Virus record (IMG/VR): IMGVR_UViG_3300030117_004164
Span: 7,216 to 71,215 of that record
Length of the DNA: 64,000 bases
From: a virus
Direction: 5' to 3' (one strand)
The notes under the pieces: model-generated
Told to the model about the DNA's origin: nothing
Databases searched by the model: none
Seen by the model: only the letters and a program-made list of their open reading frames with translations
Shown: piece by piece, positions 3,609-21,632 of the stretch
How positions within the stretch are numbered: the stretch's first letter is position 1
Layout of the letters: the number at the start of each line of letters is the position of its first letter
Translations under genes and position numbers: made by a program

Positions 3609-4382
3609 TTTAAAACACCTTTTTCAAAATTTGGGCTGTAATTTGTGAGGCACTAGCAAAATTTTTTTTAATTAATTGATTCTATTTCCAGAATAAGAAA
3701 ACATTGATTTGTTTATTTATATTTAAAAGCACGTTTCTATATAAAATGCATCTATTATAGAGTGTTAAATTAATATATAGAATAACGTGTGTTAAACGCT
3801 CCCTTATTTGTATATGCTTCCATAAAGGCAAACTTAGATATAACAGTGTTTTAATTGGATTATTAATACAAATCAGTTTAAGTTAGCCTAAAGTTCTTTC
3901 AACTGCCTTGATGCGTCATGTAGGCATACACATATTAAGTTCGCGGTTTGCCGTGTAAAAATTCTTTCGCTCAAACAGCAATTTAACCAAATAAGCCTAT
4001 TAATTTTATTAAATTAAAAATTTGGTGCAAAGCATATGGTTGTGGTAATAATGAAATTATACCTTGACTGAAAGGAATCCCCAATTGAGGACATCGCGGT
4101 AAATGTCAGATTCTATTCGCATCTTCCTTTATTTACCGACTCTACCATATGATTGGAATTACGGTAGTGTTTAATTAAAATATCTCAATTAATTTAAGTT
4201 AGGGGCGAAAACTAAAGAAAACCTAATGCTATTCGCATAATTGGCACTAGTGCCATTTCTTTAATTTTCTTCCAAACATATGGTTGCGTAGCAATATATG
4301 TGAATAACATATTGTCCTTATGGGGATTAATGGCGACTAAGAAGAACCTGCGAACAGAACCATCCTTAGTCAGCCATACTAC

Positions 4383-4663
4383 CATATGGTAGTGAAGGCG
4401 TGAAATGATAGATTAAAGAAGGAGATTTATCTCCTCTTTATTCTACTTATTAACGTATTACGCGAATAGCGTAATAAAGTGAATGAGAATAGCCTTAAAC
4501 TACCCTTAATGGGAGTAGTTCACTCGTAAAGGTATCTATTCCCTGAAAGCGGATTAAAAGAAATTTCAACCACCAACACTAATGCGGCGGCTGAAAACGC
4601 CAGACGCTTTTAATCCTATGAAACCATTAACGGCTCCTATCATATGGTAATATAACACTTTGG
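4383..4663 (+). ncRNA. Structured non-coding element, copy A (paralog of 6896-7211)
   Basis: Same order of hairpins and motifs as copy B, with compensatory stem changes; strand chosen from the GAATA loop. Confidence 0.6.
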
Positions 4664-4688
4664 GATTATATTGCCCCGAAGGGCGTAA

Positions 4689-4805
4689 TTAAATGTTTTT
4701 TATGTGATAAGCAGGAATTTCTCCGTCTTTTACACATTTGAGACAATAATATGCTCTACCGCCCCACTTCATTTTTTCTCCACAACCAATTGTTTTACAT
4801 TTCAT
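4689..4805 (-). CDS. 38-aa Zn-finger microprotein (MKCKTIGCGEK...YYCLKC)
   Basis: Hand-translated; GGAGA SD, ATGA overlap with upstream gene. Confidence 0.5.
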   Translation of the reverse strand: MKCKTIGCGEKMKWGGRAYYCLKCVKDGEIPAYHIKNI

Positions 4806-4960
4806 TTTTCTTCATCTCCTTTTATTACCCAATCTGCATAATGGTACATTTCATTTGTTATTTCTTCTTTTGCTTCTTTTCGTCGCATCCGTCTATCTTC
4901 GTTTTTAATTTCTGCTCTTCCGACAAATCGCCCTTTTCCTGTTTTCTTTGTTGAACCCAT
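4802..4960 (-). CDS. 52-aa basic microprotein with Arg-rich patch (DRRMRRKEAK)
   Basis: Hand-translated; follows the stop of 4961..5179 directly; GGAGG SD. Confidence 0.55.
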   Translation of the reverse strand: MGSTKKTGKGRFVGRAEIKNEDRRMRRKEAKEEITNEMYHYADWVIKGDEEK

Positions 4961-5179
4961 TTATTCTTCCTCCATTATACATCTTCCACATCTACAAATA
5001 GGCCAATCTTCTTGACCTCTTCCAGCCAGTAGAATAGAATCCCAATACCTATCAATATTTTCAAAATTCTCTTTAGCCCGAACCATTAAATGTGCAACTA
5101 CTTGACGCATTGGTGATTCAGGGTCTTTAGCAATCCAAGGTTCTAGTTTAGCAAATCTTGTATTCCATTTTTCATTCAT
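4961..5179 (-). CDS. Hypothetical protein with C-terminal CxCxxC
   Basis: ORF track. Confidence 0.6.
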   Translation of the reverse strand: MNEKWNTRFAKLEPWIAKDPESPMRQVVAHLMVRAKENFENIDRYWDSILLAGRGQEDWPICRCGRCIMEEE

Positions 5180-5295
5180 TCCTCTTCCTCCAATTCTCCT
5201 GTTTCTGGATTTAGTTTCATTCCAGCAATAGCCATGAGAATAGCAAAAGCGTGTTCCTCATAAGTTAATCTATCAGTTGATTCCGTTGACGTCAT
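5176..5295 (-). CDS. 39-aa microprotein (MTSTESTDRL...LEEEE)
   Basis: Hand-translated; strong GGAGGT SD; ATGA overlap. Confidence 0.55.
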   Translation of the reverse strand: MTSTESTDRLTYEEHAFAILMAIAGMKLNPETGELEEEE

Positions 5296-5430
5296 TAAAA
5301 TTACCTCCTTTTTCAGAAAAAACTGCCCCACAATTAAAACAGCCAAAATGAACAGTGTATTTCATCCCCCAACGTGGATGATAATTCCACTCTCTATCTA
5401 TTTCAACAATAATCTTACCATTACAACAAC

Positions 5431-5643
5431 TCATGCTTTCACTTCCATTTTTCCGATTTCAATTCTTAGTTTCATTTCATCAAATTCCTCTAAAGCCTCT
5501 TGAGTCAATTCCATCAACTCTTCAATCGTATTAGACTTAATAGATAATTCCTTAACAATCAAAATACCATTTCTATCGTGACCGACTTTCAAGGAATATT
5601 TCTTCTCTTGTATTTCTTCTTTTTTCCAAAACATTTTCATCAA
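5431..5643 (-). CDS. Hypothetical protein
   Basis: ORF track. Confidence 0.55.
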   Translation of the reverse strand: MMKMFWKKEEIQEKKYSLKVGHDRNGILIVKELSIKSNTIEELMELTQEALEEFDEMKLRIEIGKMEVKA

Positions 5644-5746
5644 ATCCTGTTATTGACAATTAACAACTCGACCCACGTTATACCTTGGGGCATACAAAGT
5701 ACCACCATATGGTATGGTTTAAACTTTGGGGTAAACAAGGCCCCAA

Positions 5747-6157
5747 TCAAAATAATTGAGAGAAGCACTTTGCACCGATAATTTGTCCTTTATCGTTTCT
5801 AACAGTTTGACCAACCATTAGAAAATCTGTGCGATTGGTGAATGTTTCGCAAACTGCGCGTGAGACAATATACCACACATTATCACGAATAGGTGGCAAT
5901 TCCATACCGTCATCAGGAATTTTCATTTGAACGGATTTAATTGGAATAACAAACTCATCATCAACTGCGGTGCAACTGCTAACGGGTTCATAATAAATAT
6001 CAAAGTGAAATTCACCCAATGGTCCCCATTCTTCAGAAAGCCGAATAGTGTTACCTGATGGTTGAATGGATAGCAAAACTTCACCATTATCGTCTACCAT
6101 GTTAATTTCGTGGGGTGTCATGTTTACAAATGTTTGATTGTCTTCATAGATTGTCAT
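5747..6157 (-). CDS. Conserved viral hypothetical protein (NxTPH...YIVS...VRN-GQIIG type)
   Basis: Motif pattern I recall from phage/archaeal virus proteins; GGAGA SD. Confidence 0.7.
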   Translation of the reverse strand: MTIYEDNQTFVNMTPHEINMVDDNGEVLLSIQPSGNTIRLSEEWGPLGEFHFDIYYEPVSSCTAVDDEFVIPIKSVQMKIPDDGMELPPIRDNVWYIVSRAVCETFTNRTDFLMVGQTVRNDKGQIIGAKCFSQLF

Positions 6158-6254
6158 ATTATCATCTCCTGTAATATAACAGGTTTTATTTTATTTTACT
6201 TATGAGATTGCAAAGCACATCATATGGTTGTAATGAAACTTTGTGAAATTCAAC

Positions 6255-6705
6255 CACAAAAAAAAAGAAAAGGAAATCCGCAGGTTTGCCAATTAGTGCC
6301 TATTGCATGCTCCAATACTTCTAGTGATTATCGGCCGATTTCACTATTCTTTGTCTGATACAAGTTGCTATCAGTTTCTTGACCTAACTGCTTCATTCCC
6401 AAATGGAATAAGAGGTGTCGATGGGATTACGTCGGATAACGCCTTCGCCATAAGTTTTCATCGTATCTCCTAGAATTCTGTTTCTTGAATTATAGTCTTC
6501 GATTACTTCCAACCACCCCACTAGAGCGTTATTTTCTCTAATGTTCCACTGACCGCGCTACACGGTGATAACCGAAGTTATCTTGTTCTCAGCCATTTGG
6601 CCATCAAACGTTCCTGCTAAGGAATCTCGGAGGTGTGCATTATTCCTGATAAGGGAATTATTCTGCCACGACAATGCTGAAGCCGCTAAGCCCCAGACAA
6701 TAAAA
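6255..6705 (-). ncRNA. Candidate ~450-nt structured ncRNA
   Basis: No credible ORF, raised GC, multiple hairpins including GAUAAC(UUCG)GUUAUC at 6567-6582; oligo-T tract at the 3' end (6258-6270). Confidence 0.55.
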
Positions 6706-6895
6706 CAAAAATGACATTCTATTACTTTCGGGGTTGCAAAGCACACCATATGATTGGAGAAAGGTTTTTAGGTCTGCGTATAGCAGAAATACCGTTAAGA
6801 AAACCCTACAATCTCAAAAATAGGGCCAAGGCCTAACCCTTAAATGCCTAGTGTTTTATGAAATAAACAAGTAATTTCAAAAACACACCCATGAC

Positions 6896-7211
6896 CATAT
6901 GGTACGAGGAGTGCTTAAATAAATTTATGATAGTTTTAAGAGGAAGATGAAATCTTCCCTTAATACTGCCGCTAGGTTTGGTATTATGTGCGAATAGCAT
7001 ATAATAAAGAAAACCGGAATAAATTTATTTAATTTAAACGACGAGTTACCCGAAAAAAAATCCTTTAGGACTATTGAAACTAAAGTATTCGCTAAAAGAC
7101 GCGGAAAATAGAATTAATTACCACCTATTAATAATGCGGCGGCAATCAATTCCATATACATTTTCCGCTCGAAAACATTAATGTTCCCCTATCATATGGT
7201 AGCACTTTGGG
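6896..7211 (+). ncRNA. Structured non-coding element, copy B (paralog of 4383-4663)
   Basis: See copy A. Confidence 0.6.
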
Positions 7212-7295
7212 CTAAATAAAGAGTCCCCAAAATCAAATTTCTCAGAAAATTAATTCCAAGAAAAATGATTTTGAGGGTGAGGGCGACAAATAACC

Positions 7296-7865
7296 TCACT
7301 CTTCTTCTTCAACCTCCGTTGAAGTTTCTGCCACGGGCGCGTGAATTACAGGAATATGCCCGTTCATCTCTCCATCCCAATAAATCGTATCATTAGATGA
7401 TTTCTCACCAGATGCAATCTTTAGGGAATTGCGGTAATAGGTGGTCAAACGGGACTTCATGCTCTTCATCAAAGACTCCGCATATTCGTCAGAATCGGCG
7501 TAAGTGCCGCCACCTGATTTACCGTGCTTCCGAACGATTTCACCATAAAGAGGGTCCGTCGCAAAAAACGCAGAAGCCGCCTCTGCGTATTGAGCAGCAA
7601 TCTGGGTTATTGTTTGACTTACTTCTTCCGGCAGGTCTGATTCCCGACCGCGTGAAATTGGGGAGTTCGGAAGCATCGAGAAAAGATTCGTAATATTATT
7701 CCAGAACTTTTTTCTGTTTGCTACATCTTCACGACCTTGGTCAAGGTTCCAGCGGATAACCGCTTCCATATCACCAATGTCGTTGTTCTCCAAATAAAGA
7801 AGAACTCTGCTTTCATTCTTAGACCACTTTGGGTCATCCATACTATAATCAGCCATTTTTTTCAC
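7296..7865 (-). CDS. Hypothetical protein, paralog of 9341..9844
   Basis: Shared SPxxRGxxSxLP, KHxKSGGGxYA, WDG and APVxxxxxxEEE motifs. Confidence 0.8.
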   Translation of the reverse strand: MKKMADYSMDDPKWSKNESRVLLYLENNDIGDMEAVIRWNLDQGREDVANRKKFWNNITNLFSMLPNSPISRGRESDLPEEVSQTITQIAAQYAEAASAFFATDPLYGEIVRKHGKSGGGTYADSDEYAESLMKSMKSRLTTYYRNSLKIASGEKSSNDTIYWDGEMNGHIPVIHAPVAETSTEVEEEE

Positions 7866-8226
7866 TTCCTAAGTTTTTTTTCTCCTGTGAAGGTTCTTTG
7901 TCGCCCTCATAAAAACGATTTTTGTTTTTTTATACCTTGAGGTGACAAAGTACCACCATATGGTTTTAATTATTATGGCGGTGAAACGTAACAAAGGTGA
8001 AGCCTTTGTCGCCATTGTAAGAAAAACCTTAAGGACAATTTATCGAGTTCAATTCCCAATATGCTATTCGCATATCTTCATTTCCACCCGTAAATATTGC
8101 TTACGCAACCATATGGTAATATTATGAACTTTGGGGATAATAACCCCAAATGTCCCCAAGAGCGGCAACGAATCGCCACTCAAGGGGAGGTTGGTAATCA
8201 ATGGGGGTTTCAGGCTCATTTCTGGC

Positions 8227-8628
8227 CTATTCGTGCTTTCCACGCTTGCGACGAATGATTTCATCAATCGTCTGCTTGGCGAAATCAGCCGCATCGACAA
8301 ATGGTGCAAAAATGCCGTTCTTGCCCTTCTGGAACAAATGACGTTCATAATCAAGATAGAACGCCATCAGGTCGTTAGTCATACCTTCTTGGTCATCTGC
8401 CATATCTGCCAATACTGGGTCAATACCCTTCAATTCATCGTAGAGTGCCTCATGGCCACCCTTCTTCAAAATTTCACGAATTGCGCCCCAAACGAATTTC
8501 TCCATCATAGGGGTTACATCCATGTTGACCAATTCGGTCAATTCGGCTTTTTCACTGTCTGTCATATCGCAATCATCACTTTCAAGAACTTCCTTCAAGC
8601 GATTAATGCGCTGTTGGTTTTTGCTCAT
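8227..8628 (-). CDS. Hypothetical acidic helical protein
   Basis: GGAGGT SD; protein-like composition, unlike the overlapping shadow ORFs. Confidence 0.7.
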   Translation of the reverse strand: MSKNQQRINRLKEVLESDDCDMTDSEKAELTELVNMDVTPMMEKFVWGAIREILKKGGHEALYDELKGIDPVLADMADDQEGMTNDLMAFYLDYERHLFQKGKNGIFAPFVDAADFAKQTIDEIIRRKRGKHE

Positions 8629-9340
8629 ACTTTGCTACCTCCAATATAACGAATTTAGGGGGTGTATAGTTGATACTCCCCAAAGTTACAGTATCGTATA
8701 TACACCCATATGGATGGAACATTCCCAATTGGGGGGTCTTTGCTCGCCATAGGCAGTTAATGCTTATTCAGCATTTTCCCAATTGCCATAGCGAGTAAAT
8801 CCCTATCTCCATATGGTTGTAATTAATTCATTTTAATTAATTGTATCTTTCGTGTGGAGGGTGGCTCTTTTGTGCGACTCGCAACTAACCCATATAAACG
8901 ACGTACTGTAAGCCACCAAAGAATATTCATCTGAAGAAATGAGGTCGTTCTTTTAGGTATATTCCAATTGACAATATACCATATACTATACCATATAGTA
9001 TAGAGTATAAATATAGAATATGTAATATTCATATTAGATAAACGCCCACGCATACCATTCTTTAAAATGGATTTAGAAGTAATGTTTAGGGATTTATGAT
9101 ACCTAATTGGCTATGATGAGCAGGTCACGCATGACTTTGCTTAAAATGAAGGCGAACTAGGTTCCGGTTTATTGGTAACATATCCATGAAAATTGCCACA
9201 ATGCAATATATATCATATGTATCACCGTGATACCTATTTCATAGGATTTATATGCTAAACACCTAATGTCAAGTCGCGCCGAGGCGTATGGGCAGTTTAG
9301 AATGATTATGGATGGATAAATTGCTTAAAATAAAACAAAG

Positions 9341-9844
9341 GTGAAAGAAATGGCTATGGAAGGATGGCAAGCACGAACTGAAGAAGTAGCGGAATTTATC
9401 GCAGTAGATGGATTTGACGCACAATTAAGACAAGTTGTTCAGTTCCAAATTAATTTTGGAAATGAAAACACAGACCAGCAAGAGCGAGTTTGGGACTCAA
9501 TTAAGTCCATGATTCGTGGATTAGACGGTAGCCCCGTTCGACGTGGAAAGAAGAGTAATCTTCCTGCAAGCGTAAATGTTGCTATTGCACAGATTACCGG
9601 AGAAGTTGCTTCATTGGCGGCTGATTGGTATGATGGCAATTCGCTATTACAGGCTGTATTGCTGAAACACGCAAAGTCTGGTGGCGGTGCATATGCAAAT
9701 GGTGAAGAGTATGGTGCTTCACTTTCAACAAAGGTTGGTTCACGACTAAAGAAGATGTATTCCGAGGGAACTTGGGATGGAACTACTGATGGTCTTTCAG
9801 CACCAGCACCAGTTGAAACCGCGTCTTATGACGAAGAAGAGTAA
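9341..9844 (+). CDS. Hypothetical protein, paralog of 7296..7865
   Basis: Motif sharing; GGTGA SD. Confidence 0.8.
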   Translation: MKEMAMEGWQARTEEVAEFIAVDGFDAQLRQVVQFQINFGNENTDQQERVWDSIKSMIRGLDGSPVRRGKKSNLPASVNVAIAQITGEVASLAADWYDGNSLLQAVLLKHAKSGGGAYANGEEYGASLSTKVGSRLKKMYSEGTWDGTTDGLSAPAPVETASYDEEE

Positions 9845-9943: not shown

Positions 9944-9954
9944 AATTTCAAATT

Positions 9955-10350
9955 CTTAAAATATCATAATTAAAATGATATATTATACATGATTAAAGTA
10001 ACGTTCGAGTGAACCCACTTCCTAGTAAAGAAACCGACGATGCGTACTTATGCAACAAAACGCGCAGTTTATTTATCAGTATCACATTTATATCAGTATT
10101 GATACTATATTTTATGGCCGAACAGGGTACTAGAAGTGTATTATTTTATTATATATATCATTATATCATTTATATCATATATATCTCTCTATTTTTCTCT
10201 GCTTCTCCCTATCCCCTTACACACGCGGCCCCATGTGATACTGATACTTATGATACTTATGAGCATGATATAAATGATACTTATGGCAAAGCGGGGTCTG
10301 GTTCGTGCATAAAATTCAACATATCATCACTGATACAAACGCTGATATTT
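9955..10350. repeat. TGATA/TATCA iteron-like cluster, origin candidate
   Basis: Many TATCA copies on the left, TGATA on the right; 14-bp inverted repeat 10074-10087 / 10233-10246. Confidence 0.55.
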
Positions 10351-11078: not shown

Positions 11079-11260
11079 GGGTCATTGGCGCAGTTAGGTA
11101 GCGCAACGGGCTTTTATGAGGTTTGCCGAATAATAAGAAGAAAATCTCTTCACAATCGGAATAGTAGTTTTATGGGTTATCTTCTATCCCTTTCATGTTT
11201 CTACGAACTTCTTTCCTCAAAGATACCCGTTGGTCAAGGGTTCGAATCCCTTATGACCCG
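11079..11260 (+). tRNA. tRNA-Lys(UUU) with 108-nt intron at 37/38 (11117-11224)
   Basis: GGGTCAT/ATGACCC acceptor, GCGC D-stem, ACGGG/CCCGT anticodon stem, TTCGAAT T-loop, canonical bulge-helix-bulge. Confidence 0.92.
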
Positions 11261-11583: not shown

Positions 11584-11670
11584 AGCGGGATATCCGAGTA
11601 TGGCCAAAGGAGCAGGACTTAAGATTCTGTGCAAATTGCTTCGTGGGTTCAAATCCCACTCCCGCTACCA
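11584..11670 (+). tRNA. tRNA-Leu(UAA), CCA encoded
   Basis: AGCGGGA/TCCCGCT acceptor, anticodon loop CT-TAA-GA, variable arm, TTCAAAT T-loop, ACCA end. Confidence 0.9.
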
Positions 11671-20663: not shown

Positions 20664-21632
20664 ATGAAAGAAGATATAATTAAATGTTCTGAATGTAATT
20701 CGAGAGAATTAAGTGTAGATGCTAATTCAGGTGAAACTTATTGTGAAGAATGTGGATTAGTATTAGAAGAAAATATATTTGAAGAAACAAGTGCGGGAAG
20801 AGAAAAAGATAGTGACCCTCAAAGTGATAGAACACATAATCCTAATAGAGTAGGATTTACTTTAGGAAGTATGGTTGGAACCACTAATGTAGATGGCAGT
20901 AAAGATAGGTCACAAACGGGTAGAACATTACGAAGATTGAATCAACGTGTGTCTATGAAAAGTCATGAAAAAAATAGAAGCAAAGGGTTTGCATTAGTAA
21001 CTATGTTAGTGAGTGAATTTGTTTCTTCTCCGGCATTTAGGGAACAAGCGGTATGGAATTACAAAAGAATACATGATAATCAAGTGTTAAAGGGTATGTC
21101 TTTAGAGACTAGAGCCGCCGCAGTAGTCTATTATACTTTTAAGGAAAATGGTATCTCTAGGACTATTGAGGAAATTTGTAGAAAAAATATGTCTCACCCT
21201 AGACAAGTAGCAAAATGTGCTAGAAGAATAGCAACTTTCTTTAGGAAACCTTGGATTCTTTCCCAAAAAAATATTGACCAAGATGTTGAAAAGTATTGTT
21301 CACAGTTAGGGGTGAATAGGTTATTTACTACATCAGCAATTAAACTAACATCTTTAATGCACAATATTGCTGAACAAAGATATATGAATGTAAACTCTGG
21401 TTTTACTGCTGCCTGTATTTATTTGACAGGAATTTTACTAACCCCAACTGTTGCCCCTAGAACTCAAATGGAAATTTCTAACGCGTTAAATATTACTGAA
21501 GTTACGCTTAGAACAAATCTAAGAAAGGCACTAAAGATGGTTGATAGAAGAAAAGAAAATTTACCTAATATGAGTTATGATGAATTTATGGAAGGAGTGT
21601 ATAGAATATGTCCAAAGGAAGAAGAAGAGTGA
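20664..21632 (+). CDS. tfb: Transcription factor B (TFIIB family)
   Basis: N-terminal Zn ribbon CSEC...GETYCEECGLVL; two cyclin repeats (AAAVVY, RTIEEI; AACIYL, RTQMEIS...ITEVTLR). Confidence 0.9.
   Translation: MKEDIIKCSECNSRELSVDANSGETYCEECGLVLEENIFEETSAGREKDSDPQSDRTHNPNRVGFTLGSMVGTTNVDGSKDRSQTGRTLRRLNQRVSMKSHEKNRSKGFALVTMLVSEFVSSPAFREQAVWNYKRIHDNQVLKGMSLETRAAAVVYYTFKENGISRTIEEICRKNMSHPRQVAKCARRIATFFRKPWILSQKNIDQDVEKYCSQLGVNRLFTTSAIKLTSLMHNIAEQRYMNVNSGFTAACIYLTGILLTPTVAPRTQMEISNALNITEVTLRTNLRKALKMVDRRKENLPNMSYDEFMEGVYRICPKEEEE

Follow-up and report, generated by a model that had tools for sequence, protein, structure and literature searches.

Promoter-early stem-loop (PeSL) cassettes occupy the hyperplastic regions of T4-type phages, according to the paper describing them (PMC2839356), and in the haloarchaeal virus HGTV-1 a TATA-box-plus-inverted-repeat motif stands before the left-end open reading frames (ORFs), for which analogous behaviour has been suggested (PMC3950731). 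Here we describe an array of about 14 cassettes in a virus genome, based on a stretch of 64,000 nucleotides (the window), which comprises bases 7216-71215 of the 71,215-base record IMGVR_UViG_3300030117_004164. As in the two described systems, a short conserved motif beside a stem-loop delimits the modules of a hypervariable region, which are small and mostly ORFan, and where close relatives differ by an insertion, deletion or replacement, the joints fall at this motif. It differs in that the motif has a 10-bp perfect palindrome as its core (ACCATATGGT, hereafter the site), which is used in both directions, and in that about half of the modules lack an ORF and carry conserved, covarying multi-hairpin structures. 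Promoter and terminator activity is putative here.

Two of the modules without an ORF, element A (4383-4663) and element B (6896-7211), each seem to be a tail-to-tail pair of units, unit X in plus sense and unit Y in minus sense. Our preferred reading, to which we give about an even chance, is that these units are small structured RNAs transcribed towards each other, in a hypervariable region of PeSL-like type in an archaeal tailed virus. An earlier note, made from the letters of the DNA alone, had singled out A and B as paralogs with the same ordered architecture between CATATGG sites. Pairwise alignment bore out the paralogy (76% mean column identity), and every listed part is present: ATGATAG (4405 and 6928), a first hairpin (GGAGAT-TT-ATCTCC vs GGAAGAT-GAA-ATCTTCC), a second hairpin (TATTACGC-GAATA-GCGTAATA vs TATTATGTGC-GAATA-GCATATAATA), a long stem (GGATTAAAAG/CTTTTAATCC vs GCGGAAAAT/ATTTTCCGC) around ACCACC...TAATGCGGCGGC and, downstream of it, CATTAA followed by CCTATCATATGGTA and CACTTTGGG. 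Two of these parts have to be read differently, however: ATGATAG is the basal strand of hairpin H1 and not a free motif, and the CATATGG sites, which do flank both elements, are not private to them but bound every cassette of the approximately 5-kb array. Compared with dinucleotide shuffles, the fold z-scores of the two elements were -7.3 and -5.2 on the plus strand and -8.4 and -7.0 on the minus strand, with no shuffle as good.

The left halves, unit X_A (4381-4492) and unit X_B (6894-7020), lie on the plus strand. Each is headed by a boundary site (4381-4390 and 6894-6903), followed by hairpin H1 (approximately 4409-4445 and 6929-6970) and an extended hairpin H2 (approximately 4446-4487 and 6975-7015) with the loop GAAUA (4464-4468 and 6992-6996). 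That stems diverge while pairing and loop motifs are kept, as the earlier note had proposed, was evident from an alignment of the six distinct X sequences, in which 97.4% of the cells of 26 pairs were paired and 13 of the 26 pairs had changed on both sides (0/500 shuffles). The covariation of 0.479 compared with 0.206 in shuffled alignments, none of 500 of which reached the observed value, and alignments with slid pairs as controls gave 0.07-0.12. The plus strand was the stabler one in all six sequences, by 3.6-15 kcal/mol, with 1-7 G.U pairs on plus vs 0-1 on minus; the values were -32.0 vs -27.4 kcal/mol for X_A and -35.8 vs -24.7 kcal/mol for X_B, which has four G.U pairs on plus. In a related strain, represented by the DNA run X3, the substitution 4457 A>G produces a plus-strand G.U pair in H2. 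A covariance model of the left half scored 83-113 bits on the six distinct sequences (X_A 109 bits, X_B 106 bits) and only 17-39 bits on other cassettes; in the complete records of four related genomes (G001-G004) it detected no additional full X unit. Unit X also occurs with other right halves, in L066 (1719-2044) and L069 (1-260), and the tails beside it there have no strand asymmetry of the kind seen in Y. Being found with two other tails, X is a separable module.

The right halves have the opposite polarity. Unit Y_A (4535-4648, minus strand) consists of the site (4639-4648), the hairpin Pm1 (4620-4637) and the helix P3 (4607-4616/4551-4560), inside which lie a mini-hairpin (4598-4606) and P4 (4564-4596) around GCCGCC/GGUGGU. 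In unit Y_B (7086-7200, minus strand) the site is at 7191-7200, Pm1 at 7171-7188 and P3 at 7162-7170/7098-7107, and P4 (7108-7155) has 18 bp, four of them G.U. All five Y sequences were stabler on the minus strand (-30.7 to -38.0 kcal/mol vs -16.8 to -21.4 kcal/mol on plus), an advantage of 9-19 kcal/mol with 5-6 G.U pairs on minus; Y_A folded at -32.9 vs -18.9 kcal/mol, with six G.U pairs on minus, and Y_B at -38.0 vs -18.9 kcal/mol. These G.U pairs are located in Pm1, in the mini-hairpin of the A type and in the inner helix (GCCGCC/GGUGGU and beyond), and they correspond to A.C on the plus strand. The single ordered fold on one strand that the earlier note had proposed is not supported, as the left half favours plus in 6/6 sequences and the right half minus in 5/5.

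Compensatory change is found in unit Y as well, the pairs being tabulated from per-sequence folds because the MAFFT alignment shifted the 5' arm of P3 in one type against the other. Of nine comparable long-stem pairs, five differ on both sides between the A and B types; in P4, three positions beyond the conserved core differ on both sides, and within the A type one C-G pair is replaced by U-A and one G.U by A-U. The X3 variant 4604 A>G turns a U.G pair of the mini-hairpin into C-G. Most of the X3 differences fall within 4481-4538, around the variable middle of element A (4493-4534), the tail-to-tail junction, which has no strand preference. A single palindrome, CTATCATATGATAG, serves as the head of two divergent Y units in L001, an arrangement that fits a unit beginning at the site. 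On the minus strand of element B, a hairpin CUUUAG...CUAAAG followed by U8 was read from the letters at 7053-7085 (A8 on plus at 7053-7060); it could mark the 3' end of Y_B as an archaeal-type stop. A 25-codon ORF starting from the ATG in the site of Y_A was rejected as coding; it stops after five codons in Y_B.

Homologs were sought by pattern scans and nhmmer. Copies of both the A type and the B type were found in L001, a contig that also appears as L009 and L078, and they recur unchanged in L062 and L065; L064 contains an exact copy of B, and L066 a B-type variant. The viral scan with the first pattern gave no match. A scan for ACCACC...TAATGCGGCGG returned 58 stretches, among which only L009 is a relative, and the H1 pattern returned eight, two of them true (L009 and L069); the metagenome match L063 was attributed to chance. 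The earlier note had recognised no known family, and we found no Rfam 15 match at gathering score to the elements in the window and none with E<=5 in 3900-9400. The units resemble Rfam 15 families and archaeal C/D and H/ACA small RNAs in size range and hairpin-rich architecture but differ from them in lacking both an Rfam match and the relevant boxes: neither the RUGAUGA/CUGA pair of box C/D nor an ACA box after the Y stem occurs in X or Y, in either sense. As to antisense targets within the virus genome, the longest exact matches to the units are 11-14 nt, which is chance level.

The feature that connects unit X to the rest of the array is the GAAUA hairpin. Within 130 nt downstream of CATATG, eight sources held 74 distinct GAATA pentamers, of which 30 had at least five of six flanking pairs and the remainder one to four; the percentage paired is biased because the hairpins were picked for pairing. 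All 30 copies belong to cassette arrays and follow a site, read in sense, at a distance of 20-112 nt. Their first six stem pairs comprise 167 Watson-Crick pairs, nine G.U and one A.C, and the excess of G.U over A.C has a one-sided binomial chance of approximately 0.01 by our own arithmetic. All eight pairs of the stem change on both sides (covariation 0.574 vs 0.201 shuffled, 0/500), with the stem being partly conserved in sequence (AU.UGC GAAUA GCA.AU) and the loop invariant in 30/30. An invariant loop on a freely covarying stem argues for a folded single strand over a double-stranded protein site. In 89 unrelated loci (727 kb) there were six such hairpins and 20 sites, compared with nine and 16 in the 9.3 kb of L001 alone. 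A search of genome contigs for the site-plus-hairpin pattern gave 23 matches, which came from unrelated bacteria or archaea and never from Poseidoniales, and was discarded as chance-level, again by our own arithmetic; in viral contigs it led to L074-L077, which are not relatives.

In lambdoid phages, the boxB hairpin has a GNRA-like pentaloop that is bound by the N protein. GAAUA is likewise a five-base loop of the G-N-R-N-A form, with C-G or U-A as the closing pair of its short Watson-Crick stem, and it lies near the unit start and is repeated at several places in one genome. Besides the different host domain, it differs in the number of copies (approximately seven per genome) and in that an N-like protein was not identified; the likeness is one of loop sequence.

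The sites themselves are concentrated in the array (4031-8999), which contains 14 of the 16 ACCATATGGT-like palindromes of the genome (at most one mismatch). Their CATATG cores start at 4033, 4146, 4277, 4383, 4641, 5706, 6221, 6747, 6896, 7193, 7957, 8110, 8707 and 8810, and copies flanked by CC/GG are confined to 4033-8810. The motif CCATATGG (at most one mismatch) occurs 41 times in the window vs 22.5 +/- 4.75 expected (0/100 shuffles reach 41), with the occurrences concentrated at 4032-8816; among the matches listed in a literature search for this motif in archaea, no title dealt with it. The sites are clustered in one 3-6-kb stretch in five of five related records, with 14 of the 16 sites of the record inside the cluster for the present genome, 12 of 14 for G001, 14 of 16 for G002, seven of 12 for G003 and 10 of 11 for G004, compared with 0-2 per record for a reversed-pattern control. 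Small minus-strand genes are carried by the modules 4641-5706, 5706-6221, 7193-7957 and 8110-8707, and no credible ORF was found in 4033-4146, 4146-4277, 4277-4383, A, 6221-6747, 6747-6896, B, 7957-8110 and 8707-8810. Apart from A and B, the GAAUA-loop hairpin is present in the noncoding cassettes 4033-4146 and 4146-4277 (both minus strand), 4277-4383 (plus) and 7957-8110 (minus); 8707-8810 (minus) has a U-GAAUA-A loop, and 6747-6896 (plus) has a GUAUA-loop variant, TCTGC-GTATA-GCAGA.

Cassettes are gained, lost, reordered and inverted exactly at ACCATATGGT sites in relatives. In X3, module 5706-6221 is missing and 6747-6896 is missing or replaced; the joints 5705->6221 and 6744->6894 lie exactly at sites, with eight letters shared, and in the same run the start of element B is joined to the body of element A. 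The A-type and B-type elements of L001 are mutually inverted and lie upstream of a conserved 189-aa gene, and in L069 the 6747-type module stands in a different context, next to the sequence that comes after A in the window. A blastn comparison of the array with phage records gave no match.

Further conserved parts were noted within the cassettes. The protein-coding cassettes and 6221-6747 share a minus-strand head, CCATATGRTG-N3-CTTTG followed after approximately 8 nt by a TATA-like RGTAWAA, with extended heads at 5694-5713, 7945-7964, 6209-6226 and 6735-6752 that include a 20-nt exact repeat. Several GAAUA cassettes have a second conserved module at the 3' side, ATGGCGACAAAG...CTTTGTTACGTT.CACCGCCAT, just before the downstream site (7990-8100; L001:4900-4960 and 6830-6880). 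Being common to several of them, this 3' module makes the cassettes seem to be built from exchangeable sub-modules.

Contigs from three metatranscriptomes of two studies cover 6424-6694 at depths of approximately 200-1300, and the genes at 7334-7908 and 8405-8630 have contig cover at low depth, which indicates that the array is transcriptionally active. Two RNA contig ends, at 7908 and 6694, fall approximately 50 nt downstream of a site and approximately 25 nt behind a TATA-like box, a weak hint, as contigs cannot show starts, that transcription begins approximately 50 nt downstream of the site in those two cassettes. Module 6221-6747 has an RNA depth far above that of the neighbouring genes. 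It has no Rfam match and a fold z-score of only -1.0; its minus strand carries the site-CTTTG-TATA-like head and a T9 run near 6258-6266, and copies exist in L069:2262-2747 (92.6% identical) and in L002:7441-7605 (71% over 172 nt). It may represent an abundant viral noncoding RNA or the long leader of a 22-codon ORF (6461-6394).

Our preferred reading has X and Y transcribed towards each other, each starting at or near its own head site, in what would be an early or hypervariable region of the PeSL kind. Unit X would be an RNA of approximately 110-125 nt beginning at the ACCATATGGT site, with H1 and then H2 with its invariant GAAUA pentaloop. Unit Y, approximately 105-150 nt long, would begin at the opposite site, read ACCATATGATAGG, with a small hairpin first, followed by an interrupted one of 27-28 bp that has conserved G.U pairs (GCCGCC/GGUGGU) and GCAUUA within its loop. 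By analogy, the GAAUA hairpin, present in at least 28 other cassettes too, could be the shared handle by which a single RNA-binding protein recognises them, while the remainder of each cassette would confer individuality, and the palindromic sites would be PeSL-like boundary and regulatory motifs at which related viruses exchange cassettes.

Several observations weigh against this reading. No transcript of X or Y was seen: A, B and the short GAAUA cassettes were not covered by contigs of the three metatranscriptomes, but as contigs drop small or rare RNAs, this lack of cover counts neither for nor against. X and Y lack the layout of site and TATA-like box found at the two RNA contig ends, and no conserved TATA/BRE-like motif was found at a fixed distance upstream of the heads in 30 aligned regions. 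In some cassettes the GAAUA hairpin follows directly after the site (distance 20), leaving no promoter room between the two. In the three genomes seen, X_A always occurs with Y_A and X_B with Y_B, which would suit a single functional unit, and the sample is small, with six distinct X sequences and five Y sequences of only two types. Finally, the asymmetry of G.U (G.T) pairs suits single-stranded DNA (ssDNA) equally.

Accordingly, the strand-specific hairpins might be ssDNA elements that serve cassette mobility or recombination at the ACCATATGGT sites, or replication priming, with no RNA product needed, which we consider unlikely but the best of the alternatives. It is exactly at the sites that cassettes, coding and noncoding, differ in presence, order or orientation, the polarity of the hairpins is fixed relative to the site, G.T is tolerated and A.C avoided, a fixed promoter motif was not found, and an AT-rich inverted-repeat region, a candidate origin, adjoins the array. 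The hairpins also share with attC sites, IS200/IS605 ends and REP/BIME elements that they are strand-specific and imperfect, lie beside cassette joints and are conserved in structure above sequence. Their loop, however, has an invariant sequence, and they lie at variable distances from the junction: 20 to 112 nt separate site and hairpin, whereas the ends used by known ssDNA transposases typically have fixed spacing. Among the 33 proteins scanned with Pfam and PHROGs, a subset of the ORFs, there was no integrase, other recombinase, or HUH or Y1 transposase, and both databases were empty for the cassette proteins and the large proteins of unassigned function. Moreover, the hairpin is absent from protein-coding cassettes, and loops typical of RNA (GUAA, UUCG and the GNR(N)A-like GAAUA) occur in sense orientation.

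Alternatively, the hairpins could be purely cis-regulatory parts of a region that resembles PeSLs, acting as terminators, insulators, leaders or decoy operator arrays; they would then shape the early transcription of the neighbouring small genes and have no free-RNA function. We regard this as rather improbable. Some features of the array would fit it. Behind minus-strand genes, G+C stem-loops of the form TTTGGGG...CCCCAAAG followed by a site are found at four gene ends (4660-4690, 5723-5745, 7204-7232 and 8128-8155), terminator-like sites number nine vs 4.2 +/- 2.3 expected, and the end of Y_B has its hairpin with U8; sigma-70-type promoters are not enriched (20 vs 17.5 +/- 4.6). The T4-type PeSLs are described as promoter-plus-terminator cassettes (PMC2839356), and a similar motif is reported in HGTV-1 (PMC3950731). 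A terminator, however, needs neither an invariant pentaloop nor a semi-conserved stem (AU.UGC/GCA.AU) in 30 cassettes, nor a 100-300-nt multi-hairpin architecture kept between paralogs and across genomes, and noncoding cassettes also follow one another in series without an intervening gene, e.g., in 4033-4641.

The proposal that each element is a single structured RNA (or ssDNA), read on the plus strand between its two sites, draws on the same ordered architecture in A, B and the orthologs, on flanking palindromic sites that can pair and close the whole element (9-12 bp), and on the co-occurrence of X and Y of one type in three genomes. It is nevertheless highly unlikely, as the right half on the plus strand has 4-5 A.C mismatches and no G.U pair and is 9-19 kcal/mol weaker in 5/5 sequences, X occurs without Y, and two Y units stand head-to-head at one site of L001. 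That the elements are non-functional relics, i.e., decaying duplicated spacer DNA, is very improbable: the region is hypervariable and the middle parts are poorly conserved, but compensatory changes keep 97% of cells paired despite divergence and the loop motifs are invariant.

By gene content compared with the published description, the virus is a 71-kb magrovirus-like, group-B-like archaeal tailed virus. Its genome encodes a family-B DNA polymerase (PolB), ribonucleotide reductase (RNR), GroEL and tail proteins, as well as a TFIIB/TFB homolog, an RFC-like clamp loader and an ATP-dependent ligase. The assignment follows from PolB, RFC, ligase, GroEL, RNR and tRNA-Leu, a set that agrees with the published gene content of the group-B magroviruses, which are viruses of Marine Group II archaea (PMC5434244). 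Protein matches in a phage collection reached only approximately 26% identity, to haloviruses and cyanophages, and the public runs holding the region are marine or estuarine metagenomes, with DNA runs that contain 35-77% of its words. The TFIIB/TFB homolog (20664-21632, plus strand) has a Zn-ribbon and a TFIIB repeat and might redirect the host RNA polymerase to viral promoters; TFB terms are absent from the main text of the magrovirus papers searched, a search that did not extend to supplementary files. No informative Pfam family was found for a 2613-aa protein and three other large proteins, and for the 189-aa neighbour protein the Atlas gave weak leads only, all <0.8.

Viruses of the Poseidoniales (Marine Group II archaea) occur abundantly in the ocean but are uncultured, and we know of no account of their regulation. 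The main texts of the magrovirus papers searched mention no promoters, repeats or noncoding elements (supplements may list such features), and a full-text search found no literature on Poseidoniales together with non-coding RNA. What appears to be new is the kind of cargo in an archaeal virus: conserved multi-hairpin noncoding units, with a hairpin type common to 30 cassettes. Should the units prove to be RNAs, Poseidoniales viruses would have their first structured RNA families, and noncoding cassettes would here be exchanged in the manner of ORFan genes, which is unusual. More tentatively, and with some doubt on our part, the array may be a shuffling "library" of small structured RNA cassettes with palindromic head sites, most of them with a GAAUA handle for one protein partner. 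If true, this would amount to cassette exchange of an integron-like or PeSL-like kind in which noncoding RNAs take the place of genes as cargo, possibly used in host takeover or counter-defence, with X and Y as two members forming a convergent pair. The invariant GAAUA hairpin offers a concrete bait for the protein partner, and the palindromic site a marker for the hypervariable region in metagenomes.

Beside the cassette array, an AT-rich region (9950-10350) contains short TATCA/TGATA repeats in inverted arrangement and two perfect 14-15-nt inverted pairs; it coincides with a switch in gene orientation and with the minimum of the cumulative GC skew and is a candidate replication origin. Further downstream are the only two Rfam matches at gathering score in the whole window, both to tRNAs. 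One of them (11079-11260, plus strand), which ARAGORN misses, is interrupted in the anticodon region by approximately 110 nt, less than a group I intron would require, which points to an intron of archaeal type. Adjoining it is a tRNA-Leu(UAA) at 11584-11670 on the plus strand.

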